Both the position numbers and the translations under genes were made by a program. Shown one piece after another: positions 3,382 through 60,387 of a stretch of DNA of 60,819 nucleotides (position 1 is its first letter; each line of letters begins with the position of its first letter). The notes under the pieces are model-generated. The model was not told the origin of the DNA and searched no databases. It saw only the letters and a list, made by a program, of their open reading frames with translations. The stretch spans positions 54,037 through 114,855 of the forward strand of contig CAZJOI010000001.1 in NCBI GenBank assembly GCA_964547585.1. Direction: 5' to 3'. This DNA comes from an uncultured Bdellovibrionales bacterium. Its GTDB lineage: Bacteria; Patescibacteriota; Minisyncoccia; Moranbacterales; UBA2206.

Positions 3382-5119
3382 TTGGAAAAATTTTTTTAAA
3401 AAAGAAACTTTTCTGGTTGGCAGACGGCCGTTTTTTTGGATTGCAGGTGTTATTTTTATTGTTTTTTTGCCAACTCTGTTTTATAGCATTGTTTATTTGG
3501 ATGACAATGTCTTGGCAGTTGGGCACTATCAATTTAATAGGCACTTAATAAATATTTTTCAAGCTTTTGGTGAAGATATATTCCGAAGCGTGCAAGGCGG
3601 GGGTTCTTTTTATCGTCCAATTTTAAGGTGGACATTTATATTTGACGCGCAGTTTGGGGAGGGGTTAGTGATATTTATGTCACATCTCACGAACATGATT
3701 TTGCATATAATTTCTATATGTTTGCTTTTTTATCTGCTTCTAAAATTTGAAATTAAGAAAGGTACAGCTCTGCTGCTTTCTCTGATTTTTGCTGTTCATC
3801 CGTTGACTTCTCAGACCGTGGCATTCATAGCAGGAAGAAATGACTCGCTGCTAGCTATTTTTGTTTTTCCTTCATTGATTTTTTTTCTAGATTTTTTGAA
3901 AAATAATGACAGAAGGAAATATGTTTGGCATTTGATATTTCTTACGTTAGCTTTGTTCACCAAGGAAACAGCCGTTATTTTGCCGGCACTGTGTTTTGTT
4001 TACGCAATTGTTTTTATCGGTGCAAGGAAAATTATAGTTGATTGGAAAAAATATGCATTTATTTTAACTGGATGGTTGATGATTTTAGTTTTTTGGTTTG
4101 CTGTGAGACGTGGAGTCTTAGAAAATTTTATAGGTAATGCGGACTACAATATTTTTAAAGCCATCTTTAATAATTTTCCTTCCATTTTACCTGCAATCGG
4201 AAAAATAATCCTTCCTTTTGGTCTGTCGGTTTTCCCGGTTCTAAGGGATATGTCATTTTTCTATGGAATTGTTTCTTTGATATTTTTGGCTTGTTGGTTT
4301 TTGTTGTCTCAAAAAAAGAATTATAAGTTGATAATGTTTGGGTTTTCTTGGTTTTTGCTTTTTATCTTACTCACTCTCATAAAACCAATGGATGCTGTAC
4401 CGGATTTTTCTGAAAATAGAATTTATCTTCCCATGTTTGGTTTTATATTTGTTATTTTGGGGTTAGGGGAAATCAGGCTTTTCCACAGAATTAAAGACGA
4501 GTTGTTCAGAAAAAAAATGTTGTTAGTCATGGCTGTGAGTCTGATAGTTATTTTTTCTTGTGTAACAATTTATCGGAATCAATATTACAAAGATAAGATG
4601 AGCTTTTGGGAGAATGCCGTGAAGACATCTCCTAGTTTTGCTTTTAATCACAATAATTTCGGAGCGATGAAATATTTGGATAAAAAACTTGATTTAGCAG
4701 AGATGGAATTCAGAAAGGCGCTAGAGCTTAATCCTAATGAAAAAATGGCGCATAATAATCTCGGTCTTATATATATGGATCAAGGCGATTATATGAGAGC
4801 AGAAGCGGAGTTTGAAATGGAATTAAAAATCAATCCATATTACGACAATTGTTATGCCAATCGCGGACTCTTGTATTACAAGATGGGTAAAATGGATCAG
4901 GCGATAGTCGATTGGAAAAAGACATTGGAAATAAATCCAAATTATAACAGCGTCTTGCATAATTTGGCGGTCTATTATTATGAACAGAAAAATTTTTCAG
5001 AAGCCATTTTTTATGCTCAGGAAATAGTTGATCGCGGATTTCCCTTACAACTCGAACTTCAGAGATTATTGCAGCCGACAAGCTTTTTGCAATTGCCAGC
5101 TGTTAATTTAAAAAAATAA
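3371..5119 (+). CDS. multi-pass membrane glycosyltransferase-like protein (GT-C/PMT-like) with C-terminal TPR repeats
   Basis: About 400 aa of hydrophobic helices are followed by TPR-like repeats (LELNPNEKMAHNNLGLIY.., INPYYDNCYANRGLLY.., INPNYNSVLHNLAVYY). The TTG at 3359 is an alternative start. Confidence 0.6.
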   Translation: MSDNWKNFFKKETFLVGRRPFFWIAGVIFIVFLPTLFYSIVYLDDNVLAVGHYQFNRHLINIFQAFGEDIFRSVQGGGSFYRPILRWTFIFDAQFGEGLVIFMSHLTNMILHIISICLLFYLLLKFEIKKGTALLLSLIFAVHPLTSQTVAFIAGRNDSLLAIFVFPSLIFFLDFLKNNDRRKYVWHLIFLTLALFTKETAVILPALCFVYAIVFIGARKIIVDWKKYAFILTGWLMILVFWFAVRRGVLENFIGNADYNIFKAIFNNFPSILPAIGKIILPFGLSVFPVLRDMSFFYGIVSLIFLACWFLLSQKKNYKLIMFGFSWFLLFILLTLIKPMDAVPDFSENRIYLPMFGFIFVILGLGEIRLFHRIKDELFRKKMLLVMAVSLIVIFSCVTIYRNQYYKDKMSFWENAVKTSPSFAFNHNNFGAMKYLDKKLDLAEMEFRKALELNPNEKMAHNNLGLIYMDQGDYMRAEAEFEMELKINPYYDNCYANRGLLYYKMGKMDQAIVDWKKTLEINPNYNSVLHNLAVYYYEQKNFSEAIFYAQEIVDRGFPLQLELQRLLQPTSFLQLPAVNLKK

Positions 5120-5195
5120 TTTATGGGCTGTGGATAACTCAATATTTTGGCTTATAATCCGCTACTTGCAAAGTGCTTGGCGGATTTTTATATTG

Positions 5196-5231
5196 TGGTA
5201 TAATGTTATTACTATACACTATATATAGTAC
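5196..5231 (+). promoter_or_regulatory. extended -10 promoter (TGgTATAAT) followed by an NrdR box
   Basis: TGGTATAAT lies at 5196-5204. ACACTATATATAGTAC at 5216-5231 matches 14 of 16 positions of the NrdR-box palindrome acaCwAtATaTwGtgt. A right half-site, ATATTGTG, sits about 33 nt upstream. Confidence 0.55.
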
Positions 5232-5271
5232 ATATTAGTTATAAGCTCTATAAAATTTTGATTTAAAAAAT

Positions 5272-5724
5272 ATGAATTGTCCATTTTGTAATAACTCTGA
5301 AACTAAGGTGGTTGATTCCAGAGAAACGAATGAAGGCAAAATTACCCGGAGGAGGCGAGAATGCTTGAAATGTAATCTGCGCTTCAGCACCTATGAAGAA
5401 GTGGAGCTCTTAAATTTGACGGTGCTGAAAAAAGACGGAGCCAGAGTTGAATATGACAAGAGCAAAATTGAATTTGGTATTAGAAAGGCATTGGAAAAAA
5501 GACCAATCAATGATGAGAAGTTTTCTAAGCTGATGGGGGACATTGAATACGAAATCAGGAGCTTGGAAAAACTGGAAGTAAGCACCAGAGAAATTGGAAA
5601 AATCATTCTCAAAAAATTGAAAGATTTAGATGAAGTAGCCTATGTGCGATTCGCCAGTGTTTATAAGTCCTTTGGCAGTATCGAAAGCTTTAAAAAAGAA
5701 CTGGACATGCTAGATAAAGATTAG
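5272..5724 (+). CDS. nrdR: transcriptional repressor NrdR
   Basis: Zinc ribbon CPFC..CLKC, then an ATP-cone. Collinear with NrdR along its whole length. Confidence 0.9.
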   Translation: MNCPFCNNSETKVVDSRETNEGKITRRRRECLKCNLRFSTYEEVELLNLTVLKKDGARVEYDKSKIEFGIRKALEKRPINDEKFSKLMGDIEYEIRSLEKLEVSTREIGKIILKKLKDLDEVAYVRFASVYKSFGSIESFKKELDMLDKD

Positions 5725-5769
5725 TTGCGTAATTTTTTTAGTAATTAATAAGTTAACTTTTTGAAAAAC

Positions 5770-7998
5770 ATGGCAAAACAAAAAAAGAAAGAAAAGGGGA
5801 CAAGGAAAAAAGAGGGAAAAAAAGAAGTAAAGAAAACTTCGAGAAAAACAGTTTCGAAAAATAACATAACGAGAGTCATCAAAAGAAGCGGACAAATTGC
5901 AGCTTTTGATAAGCGCAAGGTTGTTAAGGCTGTGCAGAAAGCTTTGGAAGCGACTGGAGAAGGAACGCTGACAGATGCAAAAAAAGTTACTGAAAAAATT
6001 ATTCGTCTTTTAAATAAAAATTACAAAAAAGGCTATATTCCCCAAATTGAAGAAATTCAGGATTTGGTAGAAAGAGTTTTGATGATTTTGGATTTTGACG
6101 AAACAGCCAAGGCCTACATTCTTTATCGAGAGCAACACAGAAAAATCAGAGAGACCGAAGAATCATTGAAGGAGGCTGTTAATTTGGTAGATAAATATAT
6201 TCAAGAAATTGACTGGAAGGTTAAAGAAAATGCCAACATGGCCTATTCCTTACAAGGACTCAATAACTATATTTCTTCAGTTGTGAGTTCCAAATATTGG
6301 ATGAATCGGGTTTATTCCAAAGATATTCGTAATGCACATGAAGAAGGAGATTTTCATATTCATGACTTGCAATTGGTAGCGGCTTATTGCTGTGGTTGGG
6401 ATTTGCAAGATTTATTGCGCCGAGGCTTCACCGGTGTTTCCGGAAAAGTAGCCTGCAAACCGGCCAAGCACTTTGGTTCCGCCTTGGGACAAATGGTTAA
6501 TTTCATCTATACCTTGCAGGGAGAAGTGGCTGGCGCACAAGCTTTTTCAAATTTCGACACACTGCTAGCACCCTTTATTCGTTTCGACAAATTGAGCTAT
6601 GAAGAAGTAAAGCAGGGCATTCAGTCGTTTGTTTTTAATATGAATGTCTCGACTCGAGTTGGTTTTCAAACTCCTTTTTCCAATATTACTTTAGACATCA
6701 TGCCTCCCAAAACTTTGGCCAAAGAGGCGATTATCATTGGCGGAGTTTTACAAAAAGAAACTTATGGAGAATTTCAGGAAGAAATGAATATGATAAATCG
6801 TGCTTTTGCAGAAGTGATGAGTGAGGGCGATTCTAATGGCAGAATTTTTACTTTTCCTATTCCAACTTACAATATTGGAAAAAATTTCGACTGGGATGAT
6901 AAGCGATACGATTCAATTTGGGAGATGACGGCTAAATATGGCATTCCTTATTTTGCTAATTTTATTAATTCTGATATGGATCCGGAAGATGCACGTTCGA
7001 TGTGTTGTCGCCTCAGATTGGATAATCGCGAATTACACAAACGTGGTGGCGGACTTTTTGGTGCCAACCCAATGACTGGCTCAATCGGAGTAGTCACAAT
7101 TAACTTACCGCGCCTGGGTTATGTTTCCAGAAATAAAAAAGAATTTTTTCAAAAACTTGATCATTTGATGGACTTGGCGGAGGAAAGTTTGGAAACAAAA
7201 AGAAAACTGGTTGAAAGTCTGACTGAAAAAGGTCTCTATCCATACACAAAGTTTTATTTGGATTCTATTAAGGTGCGTCGTGGTAAATATTGGAATAATC
7301 ATTTTTCCACCATTGGAATTGTCGGAATGAATGAAGCGCTTCTCAATTTGATGGGAGTGAACATTACTACCAAGGCTGGACAAAAATTGTCAGAAGAAAT
7401 TTTGACTCATATGCGAGAAAGAATTATCCAATATCAAGAGGAAACTGGCAATCTGTTCAATCTGGAAGCCACTCCAGCTGAAGGTACATCATACCGCCTG
7501 GCCAGACTCGACAGAGAAAAATATTCCAAGATTATTTTTGCCAACGATGAAAAAGTTAAAAAAGATGGCGTGGAACCATATTACACAAATTCTTCGCAAC
7601 TGCCAGTTGGACACACGGATGACATTTTTGAGGCTTTGGATCTTCAGGAAAAAATGCAAACGAAATATACTGGCGGAACAGTTTTGCATGGATTTTTGGG
7701 AGAAAGAATCTATGACATTGAATCAACCAAAAGACTCATCCGCAAGATCGCTGAAAATTATTCTTTGCCATATTTTACCCTCACCCCAACTTTTAGCATT
7801 TGCCCAGTGCATGGTTATTTGTCCGGTGAACATTACACTTGTCCAAAATGCGTAGTTGAACAAAAAACAGAAGTTTATTCACGCGTAGTCGGTTATATTC
7901 GTCCAATCCAACAATGGAATGGAGGCAAGCAAGAAGAATTCAGAGATCGCAAGGAATTTGTGGTCAAACAAAAAACCAAAGAGAAAATCAAATTGTAA
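5770..7998 (+). CDS. nrdD: anaerobic ribonucleoside-triphosphate reductase (class III)
   Basis: Lys-rich N-terminus, ATP-cone, class III RNR core, a C-terminal Cys site CPVHG..CPKC and a glycyl-radical-type SRVVGYIRP. The ORF track starts at TTG 5761; the ATG at 5770 is preferred. Confidence 0.9.
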   Translation: MAKQKKKEKGTRKKEGKKEVKKTSRKTVSKNNITRVIKRSGQIAAFDKRKVVKAVQKALEATGEGTLTDAKKVTEKIIRLLNKNYKKGYIPQIEEIQDLVERVLMILDFDETAKAYILYREQHRKIRETEESLKEAVNLVDKYIQEIDWKVKENANMAYSLQGLNNYISSVVSSKYWMNRVYSKDIRNAHEEGDFHIHDLQLVAAYCCGWDLQDLLRRGFTGVSGKVACKPAKHFGSALGQMVNFIYTLQGEVAGAQAFSNFDTLLAPFIRFDKLSYEEVKQGIQSFVFNMNVSTRVGFQTPFSNITLDIMPPKTLAKEAIIIGGVLQKETYGEFQEEMNMINRAFAEVMSEGDSNGRIFTFPIPTYNIGKNFDWDDKRYDSIWEMTAKYGIPYFANFINSDMDPEDARSMCCRLRLDNRELHKRGGGLFGANPMTGSIGVVTINLPRLGYVSRNKKEFFQKLDHLMDLAEESLETKRKLVESLTEKGLYPYTKFYLDSIKVRRGKYWNNHFSTIGIVGMNEALLNLMGVNITTKAGQKLSEEILTHMRERIIQYQEETGNLFNLEATPAEGTSYRLARLDREKYSKIIFANDEKVKKDGVEPYYTNSSQLPVGHTDDIFEALDLQEKMQTKYTGGTVLHGFLGERIYDIESTKRLIRKIAENYSLPYFTLTPTFSICPVHGYLSGEHYTCPKCVVEQKTEVYSRVVGYIRPIQQWNGGKQEEFRDRKEFVVKQKTKEKIKL

Positions 7999-21092: not shown

Positions 21093-21184
21093 AATATATT
21101 TCGTACCCTATCTATCCTGGCCATAATTTTCTATGCAATTCTTATGTATATTTTTTGAAAGACGTAGGGATTAAATTGTTTTTT

Positions 21185-21357
21185 AAAAAGGCTTATGAAG
21201 GCCTTTTTGCTTACCTCGGATTAGGCATAATTTTATTGAAATGCTTAAAATAAGCCATTTGTTGTCTTTTTTTTGACAAAGTAAGTCCTCAGGTGTATAT
21301 TCTAAAGTCAGTCGATTTTGACTGAAAGTTCTTAAAAAATCATAAAAAGAAGGAGGT
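21185..21357 (+). promoter_or_regulatory. repeated terminator/operator/promoter/5' UTR module, copy P1
   Basis: AAAAAGGC..GCCTTTTT hairpin. Palindromic ATGCTTAAAATAAGCCAT at 21241-21258. TTGACA(21273-21278), 17 nt, TATATT(21296-21301) with a TGt extended -10. UTR hairpin TCAGTC..GACTGA. AAGGAGGTG. Confidence 0.6.
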
Positions 21358-23094: not shown

Positions 23095-23293
23095 AAAGTT
23101 AGATTAAAAATTAAAACGACCTCGTTTGGGAAGGTCGGTTGTTTGCTTATTTTTGAAATATCTAAAGCCGACCTCTATCAATAGGTAAAGAAAAAAGAAA
23201 AGAAGAAGTTGCCTTTTAGTGATATTTTATTCATAATTTTATCTTGAGGCAAGTATATCAAGTTTGCCAGAAAAAGCAAATAATTATTTTTTT

Positions 23294-23444
23294 AAAGGCT
23301 TTGATATGCCTTTTTTGTTTGCCTTGGGTTGGGGATAATTTTATTAAAATGCTTAAAATAAGCCATTTTTGTCTTTTTGTTATTGACATTTTTGTTGGAC
23401 GAGTTATTATAATGATAGCTTGATTAATTTTGAGCTTGATTAAT
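23294..23444 (+). promoter_or_regulatory. repeated module copy P2 upstream of the small peptide gene
   Basis: AAAGGC..GCCTTT hairpin. ATGCTTAAAATAAGCCAT at 23349-23366. TTGACA at 23383-23388 and TATAAT at 23408-23413. Direct repeat AGCTTGATTAAT x2 at 23417-23428 and 23433-23444. Confidence 0.55.
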
Positions 23445-26970: not shown

Positions 26971-27020
26971 ATGAAGAGGCTTTTTTTGTTTGCTTTGGAT
27001 CGGACATAATTTTGTGATAA
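26971..27020 (+). repeat. degenerate partial copy (P3) of the repeated module
   Basis: ATGAAGAGGCTTTTTTTGTTTGCTTTGGATCGGACATAATTTTGTGATAA aligns with the first third of P1, P2 and P4. The palindromic site and TTGACA are missing. Confidence 0.4.
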
Positions 27021-27096
27021 TTTTTTAAATGTCTACATTGAAAATGTAAAAGAATATTAATCGTATTACAATACAAAGGAATAAATATAAAAAATT

Positions 27097-30102: not shown

Positions 30103-30127
30103 AAAAGGGCAAATTTAAAAATATACC

Positions 30128-30310
30128 AAAAAAAGCTTTAAAATAGCTTTTTTTGTTTGCCTAGAATTAGGCATAGTTTTATCAAGATGCTTGAAATAAG
30201 CCATTTGTTGTCTTTTTGCTTTGACAAAATGGTCATTTGGGTGTATACTTACAAATCAGTCAATAATGACTGACAGTACCTAAAAAATCAAACAAAATGG
30301 AGGTGTCGCG
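30128..30310 (+). promoter_or_regulatory. repeated module copy P4
   Basis: AAAAAAAGC..GCTTTTTTT hairpin. GCCTAGAATTAGGC. ATGCTTGAAATAAGCCAT at 30187-30204. TTGACA(30221-30226), 17 nt, TATACT(30244-30249). UTR hairpin TCAGTC..GACTGA. GGAGGTG lies 5 nt before the ATG. Confidence 0.6.
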
Positions 30311-35783: not shown

Positions 35784-35866
35784 ACCCCCACACCAATTTT
35801 TATAATTTAAAAATTTTTGTAAGTGTGATATTGCGAAATATTATTTGTGGGAATTGGTGTGGGGGT
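35784..35866 (+). repeat. structured element family, copy F (stand-alone, promoter-driven)
   Basis: ACCCCCACACCAATT(35784-35798) pairs perfectly with AATTGGTGTGGGGGT(35852-35866). The interior contains ATATT-GCGA-AATAT. It is followed by TAAATTAATATTTTTT. Confidence 0.65.
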
Positions 35867-35891: not shown

Positions 35892-36170
35892 ATGTTGGAT
35901 AAAAAATTAAAAGAAGCCCTGGAACTTTTAGGCGGAAAAGCAGTCGTAAAAGATGGGGAAGGTTACTATATTGTTCTGACTCTTTCTGAATTTAAGAAAA
36001 TTAGGCTCGGAGAAATCGGGAATTTGACAAAGCAAGAGTTAGTTGATAAAATCAACAATGATATTGCAATCTGGAAATCAGCTCAGGAAGAAGAGAAGGT
36101 AAATTCGATCATTTTGGATGAAATGGAGAAGAACAATTCGGAAGAAGTGATTTACGAAAAAGCTAATTGA
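35892..36170 (+). CDS. hypothetical protein
   Basis: 92-aa ORF with a weak GGGGA SD. No recognisable family. Confidence 0.4.
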   Translation: MLDKKLKEALELLGGKAVVKDGEGYYIVLTLSEFKKIRLGEIGNLTKQELVDKINNDIAIWKSAQEEEKVNSIILDEMEKNNSEEVIYEKAN

Positions 36171-37943: not shown

Positions 37944-38088
37944 TATAAAAGGATAGAGATCGATCCTAGTTAAAGTCCCCAGTTTTATCGAGGGATACTC
38001 AACTAGCCAGAGAGAAATTGATTCGTCAGTTGGCGAATTAGACTGGCTTATAGAGAGGTCAGTTTTTTTATTTGAAATCAGGATTATT

Positions 38089-38243
38089 ATCCCAGCACCA
38101 ATTCCAGCAAGGATTAGATGAGGTGTAAAGATTTATTTGCGAATACGCCTAACGGCTTAGTTAATAAAAATATAAAAGTTTAGATAGCGAATTGGTGCGG
38201 GATGCTCATATTTGTAGCTCCTCGTGCCTCGGAGACAAATATG
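38089..38243 (+). repeat. structured element family, copy A (S10/L3 spacer)
   Basis: 5' arm ATCCCAGCACCAATTC(38089-38104). TTGCGAATACGCCTAACGGCTT. AAAGTTTAGATAGC. 3' arm GAATTGGTGCGGGAT(38189-38203). CATATTTGT(38207-38215) pairs with ACAAATATG(38235-38243), which includes the rplC ATG. Confidence 0.75.
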
Positions 38244-38816
38244 GCAAAAGCTATACTCGGAAAAAAAATAGGCATGACAACTATTTATAACGAAGATAAA
38301 GAAGCACTGAATGTGACTCTGGTTGAATGTTTTTCAAAAGTATCAATGCTTAGGACTGAAGAAAAAAATGGTTATTCAGCTGTTCAAATTGAAATACCAA
38401 AAACCAAGAAAAGAATATTTAAAAAAGAATTTAAAATAGAAAAAGCCGAAGAGGAAACTTTGAAGGCAGGTGATGACATCAGCATTGATGTTTTCGAAAT
38501 AGGTGAAAAAGTCAAAGTCAGCGGTATTACCAAGGCCAAGGGATTCCAAGGTGTAGTCAAAAGACATGGCTTTAAGGGATCTCCAAAAACTCATGGACAC
38601 AAGCATGATTTACGTGCTCCTGGTTCAATTGGTTCAGGCTTTCCAGAACATGTAACCAAAGGCAAGAGAATGGCTGGCAGAATGGGTGGAAAAAGAGCTA
38701 CATCAAAAAATGTCAAAATTGTTTTCATGGATAAGGAAAAAAACATAATCGGAGTAAAAGGTGCTGTTCCCGGAGTAGCCGGTCGAATAGTTGAAATTGT
38801 AAAAAGTAACCAATAA
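38241..38816 (+). CDS. rplC: 50S ribosomal protein L3
   Basis: MAKAILGKKIGMT is a typical L3 start. The in-frame upstream ATG at 38202 lies inside the repeat element. Confidence 0.93.
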   Translation: MAKAILGKKIGMTTIYNEDKEALNVTLVECFSKVSMLRTEEKNGYSAVQIEIPKTKKRIFKKEFKIEKAEEETLKAGDDISIDVFEIGEKVKVSGITKAKGFQGVVKRHGFKGSPKTHGHKHDLRAPGSIGSGFPEHVTKGKRMAGRMGGKRATSKNVKIVFMDKEKNIIGVKGAVPGVAGRIVEIVKSNQ

Positions 38817-38819
38817 TGC

Positions 38820-38992
38820 TCCCCGCACCAAATTCTAAGAGAGTGCGGAAATAGCAAAAAGTTAATCTGAAGAATACGCCTCGCCTCGGCGAAGCGGGCT
38901 AACGGCTTGATAATAAAAAATATAAAGTTTAGATAGCGAATTGGTGCGGGATGCTCATTTTTGTAGCCACTCGTACCTCGCGGACAAAAATG
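38820..38992 (+). repeat. structured element family, copy B (L3/L4 spacer)
   Basis: 5' arm TCCCCGCACCAAATTC(38820-38835). GAATACGCC-[GC-rich insert]-TAACGGCTT. AAAGTTTAGATAGC. 3' arm GAATTGGTGCGGGA(38938-38951). CATTTTTGT(38956-38964) pairs with ACAAAAATG(38984-38992). Confidence 0.75.
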
Positions 38993-39640
38993 GCAAAGAT
39001 ATCAGTCTACAACTTAAAAGGAGAAAAGAAAGAAGAACTGGAAGTAACAGACAAAGTTTTTGGTTTACCTGAAAATGATACGCTGTTACATCAAGTTTTT
39101 GTTTCTTTGATGGCGAATAAAAGACAGTCTATAGCTGATACAAAAAATAGAGGAGACCGAGCTGGATCTGGCATTAAACCTTGGAAACAAAAAGGAACTG
39201 GCCGAGCTCGCGTTGGATCATCCAGAACCCCAACTTGGAAAGGTGGAGGTGTGGCTTTTGGTCCAAAAAGCGAAAGAAATTACAAACAAAAAATCAACAA
39301 AAAGATGAATTCCAAAGCGATCACTTTGGCTCTCAGTGGAAAGTTTCGCGACGGAGAAATATTTGTATTGGAAAATCTTGATTTGAAAGAAAAAAAGACC
39401 AAAAGCATGTCAGCTGTTCTGAAAAGTTTGAAAATAAAAGGCAGCGTGCTGATGGGTTTTCATACTAAAGAAAAAGAGATGGTGCTCACTGCCCGAAATT
39501 TGAAAAAAGTTGATTGTGTTTTGTCAGAAAGTCTGAGTGTTTTGGATATCCTAAATCACAAAAATATTATTTTATCCAAAGAATCGGTAAAAAGCATAGA
39601 AAAGAAATACGGCAAAGAAAGCCTGAAGTCTAAAGCCTAA
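38990..39640 (+). CDS. rplD: 50S ribosomal protein L4
   Basis: [11 protein letters not shown].. and the [12 protein letters not shown] motif. Confidence 0.93.
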
Positions 39641-42644: not shown

Positions 42645-42713
42645 ATAGTTTGTAGTTTATAGTTAGTAGTTTGTAGAAAACTAAAAACTAAAAACCAAAA
42701 ACTAAAAACCATT
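42645..42713 (+). repeat. TAGTTTGTAG / CTAAAAAC intercistronic spacer motif (S3/L16)
   Basis: TAGTTTGTAG occurs twice, then four CTAAAAAC-like units. The two halves are near-complementary. Confidence 0.6.
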
Positions 42714-43566: not shown

Positions 43567-43613
43567 AATGGTTGGTGGTTTGTAGAAAAAAATAAGAACT
43601 AAGAACTGATAAA
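43567..43613 (+). repeat. GGTTTGTAG .. AAGAACTAAGAACTGATAAA spacer (S17/L14)
   Basis: It shares GGTTTGTAGAAAAAA and AAGAACTGATAAAATG with the L24/L5 spacer. Confidence 0.55.
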
Positions 43614-44311: not shown

Positions 44312-44385
44312 ATAGTTGGTAGTTTGTAGTCGGCGGTTTGTAGAAAAAACCAAAAACTAAAAACTAAGAACTAAAAACTGATAAA
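44312..44385 (+). repeat. TAGTTTGTAG / CGGTTTGTAG .. CTAAAAAC spacer (L24/L5)
   Basis: Two GTTTGTAG units, then CCAAAAACTAAAAACTAAGAACTAAAAACTGATAAA. Confidence 0.6.
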
Positions 44386-46557: not shown

Positions 46558-46579
46558 GTTATAATAAATATCAATGGCG

Positions 46580-46738
46580 ACCCCGCAAAAAATTCCAGTA
46601 ACATTTTATTTTAATATTTAGAATCATTTGCGAATACGCCTGACGGCTTAATAAATAAATAACAAAGAGTTTAAATAGCGAATTTTCGCGGGGTGCTCAT
46701 AATTGTAGCTACTCGCGAGGCGCTCGAAGACAATTATG
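46580..46738 (+). repeat. structured element family, copy C (L18/S5 spacer)
   Basis: 5' arm ACCCCGCAAAAAATTC(46580-46595). TTGCGAATACGCCTGACGGCTT. GAGTTTAAATAGC. 3' arm GAATTTTCGCGGGGT(46680-46694). CATAATTGT(46698-46706) pairs with ACAATTATG(46730-46738). Confidence 0.75.
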
Positions 46739-47236
46739 GCAAGAGATAAAAAATTTAGAGCTAAAAGAGAAAAACCTGAATTTGAACAGAAGCTCTTGGA
46801 TTTGGCGAGAGTTGCCCGCGTAGTTAAGGGCGGAAGACGTTTTCGATTTAGAGCAACTTTGGTTATCGGTAATAGAAAAGGCAAGGTTGGTGTTGGAGTT
46901 GGCAAAGGTGCTGATGTTTCTGATGCCATCAAAAAAGCCTATGACGATGCTAACAAAAATATGATTTCAGTTTTGTTTAATAAAAACACAATTTTTCATG
47001 ACATTCATCATAAAAAAGGTAGTGCAAAAATTATTCTAAAGCCTGCTAAGGAAGGAAGAGGAATTATTGCCGGAGGTGCAATTCGAGCTGTGATTGATTT
47101 GTCCGGAATAAGAGATATCGTAGCCAAATCACTTGGGACTTCAAATAAATTAAATGTTGCCAGAGCAACAGTTGAAGCCCTTTCCCAATTGGCTTATTCC
47201 AAAACAAGAAAAGAAAGACTGGAAGCTAAAAACTAA
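46736..47236 (+). CDS. rpsE: 30S ribosomal protein S5
   Basis: VVKGGRRF.F.A.VV.G...G.VG.G.GKA. Confidence 0.95.
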   Translation: MARDKKFRAKREKPEFEQKLLDLARVARVVKGGRRFRFRATLVIGNRKGKVGVGVGKGADVSDAIKKAYDDANKNMISVLFNKNTIFHDIHHKKGSAKIILKPAKEGRGIIAGGAIRAVIDLSGIRDIVAKSLGTSNKLNVARATVEALSQLAYSKTRKERLEAKN

Positions 47237-47763: not shown

Positions 47764-47881
47764 TATCCCGCGATCAATTCCAGTATAGTTTTATAATAAT
47801 GTAAAATTCCGACTGCGAATTCGCCTGCCTACCGGCAGGCAGGCCTACGGTTTAAGTTTCCAAAAATTATAAAGTTTAGAT
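47764..47881 (+). repeat. structured element family, copy D (L15/secY spacer), lacking the 3' arm and start-codon helix
   Basis: TATCCCGCGATCAATTCCAG. CTGCGAATTCGCC-[GCCTGCC-TACC-GGCAGGC]-..CTACGGTTT. ATAAAGTTTAGAT is followed immediately by the secY ATG. Confidence 0.65.
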
Positions 47882-49150
47882 ATGGAAAAAATAATTCAAA
47901 TATTTAAAGTCAAGGAACTGAGGAATAAGATATTTTTTATTCTGGGTTTGTTGATTGTTTTTAGATTGGCGGCTAACATTCCATTGCCTGGAGTAAATCA
48001 AGATCAATTGGTCAGATTCTTTGAGGGCAATCAATTTTTCGGACTTCTGAACCTTTTTTCAGGCGGGGGGCTAAGCAGCATTTCTATTGTCATGTTGGGA
48101 GTTGGTCCATATATCACAGCTTCCATTATTATGCAGCTTTTGACTATGATTGTTCCGCGTCTGGAACAAATATATAAGGAAGAGGGCGAGGCTGGTAGAC
48201 AAAAATTTAACCAATGGACCAGGTGGATCACGGTTCCGCTGGCGGCTATGCAAACTTTTGGGATGGTTTCTCTTTTGCGTTCGCAACAGATTCTGGGCGA
48301 TATTGATTCCTTTGGAATGTTTTCCATTATTACCGTCGCGGTTGCCGGAACGGTATTTTTGATGTGGTTGGGGGAACTTATAACAGAGAAAAAAATTGGA
48401 AATGGCGTTTCTTTAATAATATTTGCGGGAATTGTGGCTGGGCTGCCTTCAGTTATTTCTCGAATTTTTACCACTGGTGATTCATCCCAGATATTTCTTT
48501 ATGGCGGAATATTGGTTTTGGTTGTTGCCGCGATTGCCAGTATTGTTTTCATAACTGAAGGACAAAGAAATATTCCAGTTTCCTATGCCAAGAGAATCAG
48601 AGGCAATCGCATGTATGGCGGGACAACTTCTCATCTGCCGCTTCGAGTCAATCAAGCCGGAGTTATCCCAATTATTTTTGCTATGTCAATTATGCTTTTT
48701 CCAGGAATGATTGCTAATTTTTTGGCTAATGCAGGAAATCCAGCAATTGCCAGTATTGCTAAAACAGTCGGAAATGTTTTTCAAAACCAATGGTTCTATG
48801 GATCGCTATATTTCATTTTGGTAGTAGCTTTTACCTATTTCTATACCGCTGTAGTGTTTGATCCACATAAAATTTCTGAAAGCCTGCAAAAGCAAGGCGG
48901 ATACATTCCCGGTATCAGACCAGGTGGCAATACAGCTGAATATCTATACAAAATTATGAATAGAATAATTCTTTCCGGAGCTTTGTTTTTAGGCTTAATT
49001 GCAGTCTTGCCTTTTATTGTTACGGGTGTAACTAATATTAGCTCTCTGAGCATTGGCGGAACCGGACTTCTGATTGTGGTTTCGGTTGTTATTGAAACAA
49101 TCAAACAAATTGAAAGTCAGCTAATGATGAGAGATTACGAAGGATTCTAA
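47882..49150 (+). CDS. secY: preprotein translocase subunit SecY
   Basis: 10-TM SecY pattern (GLNLFSGG, GNGVSLIIF). Confidence 0.95.
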   Translation: MEKIIQIFKVKELRNKIFFILGLLIVFRLAANIPLPGVNQDQLVRFFEGNQFFGLLNLFSGGGLSSISIVMLGVGPYITASIIMQLLTMIVPRLEQIYKEEGEAGRQKFNQWTRWITVPLAAMQTFGMVSLLRSQQILGDIDSFGMFSIITVAVAGTVFLMWLGELITEKKIGNGVSLIIFAGIVAGLPSVISRIFTTGDSSQIFLYGGILVLVVAAIASIVFITEGQRNIPVSYAKRIRGNRMYGGTTSHLPLRVNQAGVIPIIFAMSIMLFPGMIANFLANAGNPAIASIAKTVGNVFQNQWFYGSLYFILVVAFTYFYTAVVFDPHKISESLQKQGGYIPGIRPGGNTAEYLYKIMNRIILSGALFLGLIAVLPFIVTGVTNISSLSIGGTGLLIVVSVVIETIKQIESQLMMRDYEGF

Positions 49151-51157: not shown

Positions 51158-51670
51158 ATGGAAAAGTCAATATATACCGACAATAAGCCTTATATAAGCC
51201 TTGTCCCGCACCATTCAAATTCTTTTGGGTCAGCGAATAGCGAAAAGACCCAAAAGAATAAAAAAGATGAATTGGTGCTGGGGCATGTTTTGGCAATAGA
51301 TTTTGGAAAATCCAAGGTTGGTTTGGCTATGGCGGATATGGAGACTAAAATAGCTTTTGTCTATGGAATAATCCCAAATGACAAGAATATTTTTGATAAA
51401 CTAGCGGAAATAATCACCAAGGAAGGGATTAAGATGATCATAATTGGTGTTCCGGACTATGTGCATAAAGCCAAAGAAGAATATGCTGGCATATCGCTTG
51501 GCAATAGGCTAAAAGAAAAAATGGGCATTGAGGTGGAATATCAAAATGAAATGTTTACGACTAAAATGGCTCAAGAAAATATCAAAGAGCGGGATGGCAA
51601 AAATATTGCCAAAAAGGACGACCAAGAAGCAGCCAAAATAATTTTGCAGGACTGGCTCGATAAAGCCTAG
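51158..51670 (+). CDS. ruvX: Holliday-junction-resolvase-like nuclease RuvX/YqgF (start uncertain)
   Basis: The YqgF core starts near VLAIDFGKSKVGLAMAD. The first 40 or so codons coincide with repeat element R. In-frame alternative starts are TTG 51272, GTG 51275 and TTG 51290. Confidence 0.7.
   Translation: MEKSIYTDNKPYISLVPHHSNSFGSANSEKTQKNKKDELVLGHVLAIDFGKSKVGLAMADMETKIAFVYGIIPNDKNIFDKLAEIITKEGIKMIIIGVPDYVHKAKEEYAGISLGNRLKEKMGIEVEYQNEMFTTKMAQENIKERDGKNIAKKDDQEAAKIILQDWLDKA
51205..51283 (+). repeat. structured element family, short copy R inside the annotated ruvX 5' end
   Basis: CCCGCACCATTC(51205-51216) and GAATTGGTGCTGGGG(51269-51283) flank a perfect 10-bp hairpin, CTTTTGGGTC/GACCCAAAAG, whose loop is AGCGAATAGCGAAAA. 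Confidence 0.55.
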
Positions 51671-52540: not shown

Positions 52541-52698
52541 GACCCCGCACCAATTCCAAAAAATGTTTTCTGCCAGAAGTTGGTTTTGTGCGCGTGGTCG
52601 CCTAACGGCTTAAAGTTAAAAAATAAAAAGTCTCACGAGCGAATTGGTGCAGGGGTTCTCATTTTTGTTCCTGCTCGCTTAGCTCACAGACAAAAATG
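52541..52698 (+). repeat. structured element family, copy E (upstream of galT)
   Basis: 5' arm GACCCCGCACCAATTCC(52541-52557). ..GTCGCCTAACGGCTT. ..GAGC. 3' arm GAATTGGTGCAGGGG(52641-52655). CATTTTTGT(52660-52668) pairs with ACAAAAATG(52690-52698). Confidence 0.7.
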
Positions 52699-53715
52699 GA
52701 AAAAATAAAAAAACAAAAAATATCACAATTGCGGCAAGATTTGGTGACGGGTGATTGGGTTGTGATTGCAACTGGGAGAGCTAAAAGACCAGAAGATTTT
52801 GTCTTGCATAAAGAAGAGCAGATTGAGGTTACTATTAACAATGAAAATAAAACCTGCGTTTTTTGTACGCCAGAGGAAACAGGACAAGAAAAAGATATTT
52901 TGATTTATAAAAAAGCTGATGAAGACTGGAGTCTTCGAGTTTTCCCAAATAAATATCCGGCTTTCACTCGAGGTAGGGTAGTCAAGCATTTTGAAGAAGG
53001 CCCATATTTTGGGATGGATGGCGTTGGCTATCATGAGGTTATTGTGACTCGAGATCACAATAGACAAATTGCCAATCTGGATGTGATGGAGGTAATGGAA
53101 ATAATCGATGCCTATCAAAGTCGTTATATTGACTTGATGAACAAAAAAAGTGTCAATTTTATTGAAATTTTTCATAATCATGGCAAAGAGGCTGGAGCTT
53201 CTCTTTCTCATCCGCATTCTCAACTAGCGGCTATTCCTGTGATTTCACCCTACATTAAAGGCGAATTGCAAGGAGCGGAGACATACTATAAAAATAACAA
53301 GGAGTGCGTTTTTTGTGTTATGAATGAATGGGAATGTGAAAGCCAGAAAAGAGTTATTTTTGAAAATAAAGAATTTGTGGCGTATTGTCCTTTTTCATCG
53401 CGTGCAGCTTTTGAAGTTTGGATTGTTCCTAAAAAACATCAGCCTTACTTCGAAAGAATAACGGACAAACAAAAAAAAGGATTGGCAGAAGCTTTGCAAA
53501 ATTCAATAAATAAAATCTACAAGGCCTTGGGAAATCCGCCTTACAATTTTTATCTGCACACTGCGCCTTGCGATGGAAAAGATTATGCACATTATCATTG
53601 GCACATCGAGATTATTCCACATACCTCTACTTGGGCTGGGTTTGAACTTTCAACTGGGGTTGAAATATCCACCATTGAACCGGAAGTTGCCGCAGAATTT
53701 TTAAGAAATATTTAA
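52696..53715 (+). CDS. galT: galactose-1-phosphate uridylyltransferase family (HIT superfamily) enzyme
   Basis: CVFC zinc site, FPNKYPA and SLSHPHSQL (HxHxQ). Confidence 0.8.
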   Translation: MEKIKKQKISQLRQDLVTGDWVVIATGRAKRPEDFVLHKEEQIEVTINNENKTCVFCTPEETGQEKDILIYKKADEDWSLRVFPNKYPAFTRGRVVKHFEEGPYFGMDGVGYHEVIVTRDHNRQIANLDVMEVMEIIDAYQSRYIDLMNKKSVNFIEIFHNHGKEAGASLSHPHSQLAAIPVISPYIKGELQGAETYYKNNKECVFCVMNEWECESQKRVIFENKEFVAYCPFSSRAAFEVWIVPKKHQPYFERITDKQKKGLAEALQNSINKIYKALGNPPYNFYLHTAPCDGKDYAHYHWHIEIIPHTSTWAGFELSTGVEISTIEPEVAAEFLRNI

Positions 53716-60229: not shown

Positions 60230-60387
60230 GGGTTCTTAGCTCAGTTTCCGCCGGAGGCGGACAAGGTCCGAGCGCTGTAATAGTGAAAGTATATAATCCG
60301 AGTTTGATTTAAGGAACTCAGTTCCCGCCGGAGGCGGACAGGGTACGAGCGCTGTAATAGTGAAAGTATATAATCCGAGTTTGATTT
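60230..60387 (+). repeat. two tandem units of about 77-81 nt, each starting with a tRNA-Ala 5'-like fragment and carrying a CCGCC-GGA-GGCGG hairpin and a TATAAT box
   Basis: Unit 1 is 60230-60310 and starts with GGGTTCTTAGCTCAGTT, 16 of 17 identical to the tRNA-Ala 5' end. Unit 2 is 60311-60387. Both contain ..GAGCGCTGTAATAGTGAAAGTATATAATCCGAGTTTGATTT. Confidence 0.75.

Follow-up and report, generated by a model that had tools for sequence, protein, structure and literature searches.

The stretch of DNA analysed here (60,819 nucleotides of contig CAZJOI010000001.1, called the window) raises the question of why the start codons of rplC, rplD, rpsE and galT are the last three bases of perfect 9-bp helices in an organism that otherwise shows almost no Shine-Dalgarno sequences. 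The original prediction, made from the window alone, offered two answers: a module that gates translation initiation or acts as a portable initiation region, and the junction of a mobile element that inserts exactly at start codons. These are not alternatives; parts of both are supported by comparative data, and the answer favoured here, at a probability of about 0.5, is that the helix forms the 3′ module of a multi-copy Moranbacteria element of ~165 nt, a mobile RNA element that docks on start codons and gates their translation.

Reading of the four sites reproduced all of the helix coordinates and sequences, which pair CATATTTGT (38207-38215) with ACAAATATG (38235-38243) at rplC, CATTTTTGT (38956-38964) with ACAAAAATG (38984-38992) at rplD, CATAATTGT (46698-46706) with ACAATTATG (46730-46738) at rpsE, and CATTTTTGT (52660-52668) with ACAAAAATG (52690-52698) at galT. 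The ATG of the helix is the first codon of a long open reading frame (ORF) at all four sites, and the downstream proteins, identified by their N-termini, neighbouring genes and Pfam, are L3, L4, S5 and a GalT-like protein. The CTCG...CTC(G/A) direct repeat in the loop and the ATGGCA(A/G) protein starts were present as claimed, and Shine-Dalgarno sequences are indeed nearly absent, with GGAG, GAGG or AGGA at -20 to -4 in 7 of 65 genes against a background of 8.6%. The helix exceeds the reported 9 bp, as past a bulged U three more base pairs reach into codon 2, giving the hairpin a lower helix of 12 bp, UGC-[U]-CAUNNUUGU with ACAANNAUG-GCA, that holds both the start codon and codon 2. The compensatory change proposed for the helix was borne out, and this extension adds a further instance of it, UGC/GCA at rplC, rplD and rpsE and UUC/GAA at galT. 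The whole start hairpin folds at -11 to -16 kcal/mol in the window copies. A perfect helix of at least 9 bp ending at the start codon occurs at 4 of 61 gene starts in the window, exactly these four, compared with 0.01 starts per set of shuffled upstream regions; the homology of the four, all copies of one repeat, means that they cannot be counted as independent coincidences, and the evidential weight for the start-codon helix sits in covariation.

At each of the four start-codon sites a full copy of this structured repeat has its 3′ end. Its long-range stem, P1, joins CCCGCACCAAUUC with GAAUUGGUGCGGG over 14-15 bp with a mean of -19.9 kcal/mol and frequently contains a bulged A, and the element reads, from 5′ to 3′, P1 5′ strand, variable hairpin, small conserved GCC-loop-GGC hairpin, A/U-rich stretch of ~30 nt and P1 3′ strand. 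The start hairpin (44-48 nt) begins two nucleotides beyond the P1 3′ strand, and its built-in 'anti-start' arm, UGC-U-CAU-NN-UUGU, pairs with ACAA-NN-AUG-GCA. The copies in the window are as follows.

38089-38246, plus strand: copy A, full element 5′ of rplC (142.8 bits, E value 6e-33; hairpin free energy -15.7 kcal/mol), with P1 5′ strand at 38089-38104, P1 3′ strand at 38189-38203, start hairpin at 38203-38246 (5′ arm UGC-U-CAUAUUUGU, apex 38216-38234, 3′ arm ACAAAUAUG-GCA) and rplC ATG at 38241-38243.

38820-38995, plus strand: copy B, full element 5′ of rplD (117.8 bits), starting 4 nt past the rplC stop codon, with P1 5′ strand at 38820-38835, a 19-nt insertion in the interior, P1 3′ strand at 38938-38951, start hairpin at 38952-38995 and rplD ATG at 38990-38992.

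46580-46741, plus strand: copy C, full element 5′ of rpsE (150.2 bits), with P1 5′ strand at 46580-46595 and P1 3′ strand at 46680-46694 (P1 variant AAAAAAUUC/GAAUUUUCG), start hairpin at 46694-46741, rpsE ATG at 46736-46738 and ATGGC on the 5′ edge at 46574-46578.

52542-52701, plus strand: copy D, full element 5′ of galT (130.5 bits), with P1 5′ strand at 52542-52556, P1 3′ strand at 52641-52656, start hairpin at 52656-52701 (UUC-U-CAUUUUUGU / ACAAAAAUG-GAA) and ATG at 52696-52698.

The P1 arms are present in every full copy, and because the conserved start hairpin lies outside the 3′ arm the inverted repeats are not terminal. Apart from the GCC-loop-GGC hairpin the interior is poorly conserved, and it is absent in minimal copies of 77 nt (L005:2340-2416 and L141:144-220). 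Lengthening of P1 by the 5′ flank (AUGGCUAU with AUGCUCAU) was feasible on paper but inconsistent in the variant copies checked by eye. Apart from two tRNAs, the window matched nothing in Rfam 15 at gathering scores, and at E values up to 10 copies A and B gave no relevant match, transposon-associated RNA families included.

A DNA search pattern that required the P1 3′ strand, the 5′ arm and ACAA, and did not require the ATG, retrieved 103 metagenome stretches and 87 stretches of species-representative genomes; ~14 of the metagenome matches and a handful of those in genomes belonged to other phyla and were plainly false. With 64 copies as its basis, a covariance model added copies from the flanks that lay beyond the reach of the pattern, and the two approaches gave 160 distinct copies after duplicate removal. 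The window holds four full copies in 60.8 kb, and the strict pattern alone finds 10 copies in each of two nearly complete genomes (JBAZPT01 and CAVZKT01), that is, at least 10 per genome of ~1 Mb. The true genome matches are metagenome-assembled genomes (MAGs) of Moranbacteria or Parcubacteria, almost all copies being in Candidatus Moranbacteria; a few matching MAGs, the source of the related stretch L001 among them, are labelled 'Bdellovibrionales', and their gene content is that of a Moranbacteria/Parcubacteria lineage. The window itself is placed in Candidatus Moranbacteria (Parcubacteria, candidate phyla radiation) by its L4 homologues, and an exact-protein look-up of its L3 gave no record. 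Members of the candidate phyla radiation have tiny genomes and few known regulators.

In a covariance-model alignment of 95 distinct copies the start hairpin is 95.5% paired and 13 of its 17 pairs are changed on both sides, as are 7 of the 15 pairs of P1, and all four covariation measures for the whole structure lie above 500 of 500 shuffles and all slid controls. The pairs that the search pattern did not force (CAU/AUG, NN/NN and GC/GC) are 97-100% paired. The cleanest test of the pairing is given by 28 copies that could not have been selected by the pattern, 25 of which retain 10-12 of the 12 lower-helix pairs, the other three, which are low-scoring or decayed, retaining 8-9. These copies contain the new compensations CUUUUUUGU/ACAAAAAAG, GAUUUUUUC/GAAAAAAUC, CGAUUUUGU/ACAAAAUCG and AAUUUUUGU/ACAAAAAUU, and also CAUUUUUGC/GCAAAAAUG, CAUUUUUAU/AUAAAAAUG and CAUAAUUUU/AAAAUUAUG. 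The original prediction had named retention of the element with loss of the pairing in related genomes as the outcome that would count against it; the helix is instead kept by compensation in the 160 copies, which come from many genomes.

The gene starts in an exact register with the helix triplet, at offset 0 in 129 of the 160 copies, at +5 in 26 and at +6 in one (156 in all), and the four copies with other offsets are low-scoring and divergent. The +5/+6 class comprises genes with a fixed N-terminus other than Met-Ala, namely S12 (MPTINQL), S7 (MPRR), S19, S13, S3, L14 (MIQ), L6, L24, SecY, HypC, HypA and MreB, whose own ATG lies ~5 nt further; +5 sites read AUGGC-AUG, with the true start codon flush with the 3′ foot of the helix. 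As genes unable to start Met-Ala still carry the ATGGCA of the helix, this sequence is a structural part of the element, translated or not. As to whether the N-terminal MAK/MAR residues travel with the element, a check named in the original prediction, the answer is only partly yes: ATGGCA belongs to the helix whether used or not, but rpsE and rplD already begin ATGGC in the relative L001, which lacks the element at these sites, and S12, S7, S19, L14 and other genes with fixed N-termini keep their own ATG. The second codon is GCA in 114 of the 129 offset-0 copies, and the 5′ arm mirrors the codon 2 of the gene itself (GCA/UGC, GAA/UUC, GUA/UAC and CGA/UC-U-G); the orthologous galT copy L010:1446-1609 carries UUC/GAA like copy D.

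The helix triplet is AUG in 128 of 129 offset-0 copies, compared with 19 of 27 in the +5/+6 class, in which the unused AUG has often been lost through a double change that preserves the helix, and CAU/AUG pairs covary where the gene uses the next AUG. This removal of an unused AUG by compensated changes suggests that selection sees the helix as well as its AUG, a pattern that would point to the transcript rather than to DNA alone. The asymmetry between G-U and A-C combinations is uninformative in fixed columns (332 against 321), because bulges shift the register of P1, and per-copy alignment of the arms gave 43 wobble-compatible against 17 A-C-type transitions, which is modest support for the sense strand.

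The 85 downstream proteins that match Pfam fall into 80 families, including ribosomal proteins, NusG, SecE, MurA, MreB, HypC, UvrA, DnaJ and glycosyltransferases, so the element marks no regulon. Nor is it confined to one ribosomal-protein operon, and its presence ahead of the non-ribosomal genes galT, murA, uvrA and hypC does not fit a ribosomal-protein autoregulatory leader. A same-strand ORF lies within 400 nt upstream in 84% of copies and half of those ORFs end no more than 20 nt before P1 (from a same-strand scan for ORFs of at least 100 codons, replacing a stop-to-stop scan that was too noisy in AT-rich DNA); with this mostly intercistronic position the element must be transcribed whole. 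A scan of copies A-C and a truncated copy at secY found no sigma-70-like promoter in or beside them.

An ATG inside the element (GGG-ATG-CTCAT) at 38202 and 38951 is in frame with rplC and rplD, respectively, and public gene calls start there, adding 13 spurious residues (MLIF...) and giving 229 aa for P0001 and 224 aa for P0008 in place of about 211-216. The practical consequence is that gene callers mis-start rplC and rplD within the element. A peptide encoded by the element is ruled out, the two in-frame ATGs being accidents of loop length, with copy C out of frame and copy D containing a stop codon.

In a few copies, L024:3078-3237 (the same as L045 and L187) and L115:4231-4397, the helix start codon opens a mini-ORF of 4-5 codons whose stop codon overlaps or just precedes the real start. 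The first reads UUG GAA AAG GAG GUG UAA U AUG, with a true AAGGAGGUG site, and in the second AUG GCA AAA UUA UGA overlaps the AUG of L24, an arrangement that hints at termination-reinitiation.

The folding model places the start codon of offset-0 copies in the paired state in the full element, with a predicted probability of being unpaired of 0.09 (median 0.01). This probability becomes 0.39 when the P1 5′ strand is blocked, and 0.06 when an interior segment is blocked, 0.08 when both P1 strands are blocked, and 0.23 on average (median 0.07) when blocking of the P1 5′ strand is combined with shuffling of the P1 3′ strand. The direct repeat already noted in the original prediction is the CUCG-rich hairpin apex, and this apex looks like the P1 5′ strand and complements the P1 3′ strand. 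Type-1 apices, CUCGC|UUCGCU, match two conserved flanks, GCGGG and AGCGAA, and type-2 apices, CUCGUACC, CUCGUGCC or CUCGCAC, match GGUGCGGG contiguously. The subfamily with the P1 3′ strand UUCGCGGGG, to which copy C belongs, carries the matching apex CUCGCGAGG, and in one copy with UUCACGGGG, which carries CUCGUGAAA, the P1 5′ strand has changed to match. The duplex between apex and P1 3′ strand has an energy of -14.7 kcal/mol within a copy, -12.8 kcal/mol between copies and -10.0 kcal/mol with a shuffled apex, and minimum-free-energy structures show the predicted swap in copies A, B and C.

Under the favoured reading the element would be transcribed together with the gene that follows, the start hairpin serving as a translational sequestor and the P1 3′ strand as its anti-sequestor. 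With P1 closed the AUG would be occluded; if the P1 5′ strand became unavailable, perhaps through cleavage within P1, the passage of a ribosome, or an RNA or protein acting in trans, the freed P1 3′ strand could pair with the CUCG-rich apex, a mimic of the P1 5′ strand, and the start region would open. In genes unable to begin Met-Ala the helix would end flush against their own AUG, and spread within genomes would occur through insertion at gene starts reading ATGGC. Gating appears to be the best-supported function, given the predicted occlusion of the AUG and its P1-dependent release. The gating originally proposed agrees with a helix that covers or abuts the AUG and with the predicted occlusion and release, and agrees less well with +5/+6 copies, in which the start codon stands at the foot of the helix, not inside it.

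Several observations weigh against this reading. Copy D shows no swap in its minimum-free-energy prediction, and the anti-sequestor pairing falls mostly on conserved bases, its fixed-column covariation being reached by 6 of 500 and 33 of 500 shuffles, so the switch is thermodynamically predicted, not proven. The +5/+6 starts, used in 17% of copies, have a predicted unpaired probability of 0.50 at the helix foot, and strict sequestration is therefore not universal. The genes served are mostly housekeeping genes, presumably highly expressed, which is at odds with a default-off hairpin of -13.7 +/- 2.8 kcal/mol. The stop codon of the upstream gene is most often 10-15 nt ahead of P1; if the reach of a ribosome is as we estimate it, one that terminates there would be too far away to melt much of P1, which speaks against this candidate trigger. 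The poorly conserved interior, dispensed with in the minimal copies, gives no sign of a ligand-binding pocket, and the covariation of P1 could derive partly from two transposase-binding ends evolving together.

If gating is correct, the element provides an experimental handle on translation control in an uncultured lineage and an example of a mobile element rewiring translation rather than transcription. Even as selfish DNA only, it would be the first repeat family found in the literature searched that targets start codons and survives there.

The mobility of the element is best seen at the orthologous sites of related stretches, listed here with their L4 identity to the window.

L001 (80%): rplC, rplD and rpsE sites all empty.

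L003 (71%): rplC and rplD sites empty and rpsE site filled; the element also at rpsN, and its 3′ half at secY.

L108 and L110 (79-83%): rplC site empty; rplD site empty, with 2-4 nt from the rplC stop to the rplD ATG; rpsE outside the contig.

L112 (83%): rplC site filled; rplD site empty (2 nt); rpsE outside the contig.

The rplC-rplD spacer of the window holds the whole element at a place where relatives keep a stop-start spacer of 2-4 nt. Over its 3′ ~100 nt copy B shares ~92% identity with copy A, which lies 750 bp upstream at rplC, and two copies in L003 are 93% identical to each other, compared with 74% to the orthologous rpsE copy of the window. A second ATGGC stands at a fixed place just 5′ of P1 in 32 of 123 offset-0 copies (26%), compared with 1 of 26 +5/+6 copies (4%) and 6 of 123 in a longer control window; it looks like a duplicated 5-bp target or a recombination core common to both junctions. 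The comparison of filled and empty rplD sites allows at most an (A)ATG duplication, and with microhomology of only 3-4 nt it cannot define the insertion boundaries. From these comparisons the element seems mobile-like, moving between gene starts over short evolutionary time scales. The portable or mobile part of the original prediction is thus supported by the spread over ~80 Pfam families, the patchy occupation of orthologous sites and the fixed start-codon junction, and it falls short in that a target duplication is unproven and no parent was found in the loci scanned. The genome of L001 has copies of the element elsewhere and a decayed remnant 5′ of rplN.

Partial relatives of the element are also present in the window.

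47777-47887, plus strand: truncated copy 5′ of secY, covering model positions 16-105 only (26.7 bits, E value 9.5e-5).

35784-35866, plus strand: short hairpin with the terminal arms of the element, CCCCCACACCAAUU / GGAAUUGGUGUGGGGG (-41.4 kcal/mol, z score -6.2).

51198-51285, plus strand: another short hairpin, lacking the start hairpin and with the P1-like arms CCCGCACCAUUC / GAAUUGGUGCUGGGG (-40.8 kcal/mol, z score -6.8).

The truncated copy lacks the P1 3′ strand and the start hairpin, the secY ATG (47882) coming directly after AAAGTTTAGAT, and the secY site of L003 holds the complementary 3′ half of the element (L003:19092-19204). The hairpin at 35784-35866 has a different interior and no start hairpin, and is followed by AAGGGG and an ATG at 35893. 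The two short P1-armed hairpins suggest a wider family with common ends. More distant relatives, with a P1-like stem between direct repeats of TTGAC and no start hairpin, occur at L099:171-293 (minus strand) and L069:4504-4627, the former with an ATG 7 nt past the stem.

The same data could be explained, though this is considered unlikely, by selfish mobile DNA only, a relative of MITEs (transposable elements of miniature size with inverted repeats) with the P1 arms as terminal inverted repeats and no regulatory RNA role. The hairpin and its ATGGC complement would then serve insertion at the level of DNA or single-stranded DNA, and its place at start codons would come from targeting of ATGGC and from the survival of only those insertions that regenerate an intact start. 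This explanation accommodates the P1-like arms bounding two short hairpins with other interiors, the patchy presence among relatives, copy B as a recent local duplicate, the greater similarity of copies within a genome than of orthologous copies across genomes, and the unequal frequency of the 5′-edge ATGGC between the offset-0 and +5/+6 classes; moreover, 62 of the 65 genes in the window lie on one strand, and the co-orientation of element and gene is thereby confounded with replication direction. It accounts poorly for a 5′ arm fitted to gene-specific second codons (GAA, GUA and CGA), with the galT orthologues of two genomes both carrying UUC/GAA, for the removal of unused helix AUGs by paired changes that preserve the helix, and for the persistence of copies at the same genes (NusG, L11, L27 and L3) across many genomes. 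The hairpin outside the inverted repeat is also unlike a classical MITE, and a crude scan for distant arm pairs over about 0.8-1.4 Mb of loci, a weak negative, found no transposase-bearing parent with the same arms.

A module for RNA processing or stability is given similarly low credence. Polycistronic transcripts would be cut at P1, which by itself or in a stack with the next helix would form an RNase III-type site; the start hairpin would be the protective 5′ end of the downstream mRNA and the remnant of P1 would protect the 3′ end of the upstream one. The intercistronic position described above and a P1 duplex of 14-15 bp, often with a bulged A and with a mean of -19.9 kcal/mol, agree with such a module, and known small repeats act in this way, as Correia elements are cut by RNase III at their paired inverted repeats (PMC2649163; PMC10969869). 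Processing is also compatible with the switch, as cleavage would remove the P1 5′ strand and raise the predicted accessibility of the AUG. Alone, it leaves unexplained why the helix includes or abuts the start codon to the nucleotide and why spurious helix AUGs are purged by compensated changes, and in 16% of copies the 400 nt upstream contain no gene on the same strand.

A more ambitious form of the gating reading, regarded as doubtful, is a self-propagating translation-control cassette in which the anti-start arm UGC-U-CAU would be a nucleic-acid guide onto ATGGCA starts, and in which dozens of housekeeping genes per genome would be placed under one P1 switch, set jointly by a single trans-acting RNA, protein or nuclease. 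If true, this would constitute a mobile, genome-wide translational regulon in bacteria without Shine-Dalgarno sites and most transcription factors.

It is improbable that the element recruits or positions ribosomes in place of a Shine-Dalgarno sequence, docking on the small subunit so that the AUG at the helix foot enters the P site; it would then work in the manner of a bacterial internal entry site and would not repress. The essential absence of Shine-Dalgarno sequences in this organism, the service to ribosomal proteins, chaperones and other highly expressed genes, the fixed register of the used AUG (0 or +5/+6) and the ~30-nt A/U-rich stretch as a possible standby site would all agree with recruitment. 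Most genes of the same genome, operon neighbours included, start without the element, close relatives express the same genes without it, the offset-0 AUG lies in the middle of a 12-bp helix that must melt, and one copy (L024:3078-3237) has after it a genuine AAGGAGGTG site and, 19 nt downstream, an ATG, all of which argue against it. An RNA thermometer, in which an AU-rich helix over the start codon melts with temperature, would fit the mostly A-U lower helix and the GroEL- and DnaJ-like genes among those served, and is very improbable given that most genes served are not stress genes, that 12 bp plus a second stem reach a mean of -13.7 kcal/mol with few mismatches, and that the habitats (one contig labelled activated sludge; MAG names suggesting water and sediment) do not obviously involve sharp temperature shifts.

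The closest known systems are intergenic repeats of the Correia and ERIC type and the sequestor/anti-sequestor platforms of riboswitches. The Correia repeats (CREE/NEMIS) of Neisseria are cleaved by RNase III at their paired ends, which affects neighbouring genes (PMC2649163; PMC10969869). Like the element described here, they are multi-copy non-coding repeats of ~100-160 bp with paired inverted repeats, located next to genes, transcribed together with them and differing in presence between related genomes. Unlike it, they insert at TA in either orientation and at variable distance from genes, and some create promoters or bind IHF; pairing with the start codon has not been reported for them, whereas the Moranbacteria element has a fixed orientation and a start-codon junction exact to the nucleotide, and carries a separate 3′ hairpin beyond its inverted repeat. 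The ERIC/IRU repeats of enterobacteria and Yersinia are imperfect palindromes of ~127 bp in operons that are transcribed, form long hairpins and modulate the flanking mRNA (PMC10969869; PMC3184786). The Moranbacteria element similarly sits inside operons and folds, whereas the effect of ERIC consists of an unmasked RNase E site and altered mRNA stability, with no fixed start-codon register and no codon-complementary arm.

In translational riboswitch platforms such as the thiM thiamine pyrophosphate riboswitch, the 3′ strand of P1 has two possible partners, the 5′ strand and a portion of a downstream hairpin by which the initiation region is hidden, and the predicted accessibility of the start codon in the Moranbacteria element likewise changes with P1 pairing. 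The element differs from a riboswitch in its variable and dispensable interior, its many copies per genome, its patchy, mobile-like presence and its lack of an Rfam match, and with no conserved pocket and no coherent regulon it does not belong to that class. Membership of the MITEs is partial: the short length of ~165 nt, the non-coding character, the many copies per genome and the presence/absence differences at orthologous sites agree with it, but the hairpin lies outside the inverted repeat, the duplication is unproven and no parent was found in the loci scanned.

Among phage hairpins processed by RNase III, for example those between the cistrons of T7 early RNA and in the lambda N leader, removal of one strand by cleavage can unmask a downstream initiation region. 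These are also structured RNAs within or ahead of the cistrons of one transcript, but they are fixed in one genome, form no mobile family and do not include the start codon in a covarying helix; cleavage of the Moranbacteria element is hypothetical. Transposons of the IS200/IS605 family have a left-end guide, separate subterminal hairpins and a fixed tetra- or pentanucleotide target on one side, and group II introns, which are ribozymes of more than 600 nt, recognise targets by pairing between exon- and intron-binding sites (EBS-IBS). Both resemble the element in the complementarity of the internal UGC-U-CAU to the flanking target ATGGCA and in the target-like ATGGC on both edges of part of the copies. 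In contrast to IS200/IS605, a long-range P1 joins both ends of the Moranbacteria element and its pairing takes the form of a common hairpin stem in the sense transcript; the long-range P1 and the lack of an Rfam match to transposon-associated RNA families do not fit an IS200/IS605-derived palindrome-associated element or omega-RNA scaffold.

No description of this element was found in the literature searched, and in a 2024 review of MITEs in prokaryotes the terms 'start codon', 'ribosome binding' and 'Shine-Dalgarno' do not occur. We could not find, in the same literature, a description of nucleotide-exact docking on start codons through a built-in complementary arm.

Other structured features accompany the element in the window. 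Between rpsJ and rplC, positions 37944-38075 form a structured leader (-34.8 kcal/mol, z score -2.7) that ends in a terminator-like hairpin and U-run (38040-38065). It has no Rfam match, and its sequence blocks recur in L001:9170-9290 and L003:9270-9385, which lack the element there; it may be an undescribed ribosomal-protein attenuator. Intercistronic hairpins at 42646-42704 and 44313-44373, and a weaker one at 43570-43607, are UAGUUUGUAG / CUAAAAACUA repeats in the ribosomal-protein operon that end a few nucleotides ahead of the rplP, rplE and rplN starts (z scores about -3), and start-proximal hairpins may be a general habit of this operon.

The related stretch L001, which lacks the element at its S10-operon sites, contains two adjacent DUF6922 and AbiEii pairs, resembling toxin-antitoxin systems, at 4858-6769, 5′ of tuf. 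A second repeat family of ~50-100 nt is present in the window at 21174-21273, 23282-23381, 26979-27030 and 30120-30219, each copy consisting of a terminator-like GC hairpin followed by a conserved block (TTGCTTACCTCGGATTAGGCATAATTTTATT...). Two tandem units of 71 nt, 96% identical to each other, occupy positions 60240-60387, directly 5′ of tRNA-Ala (60388) and tRNA-Ile (60577).

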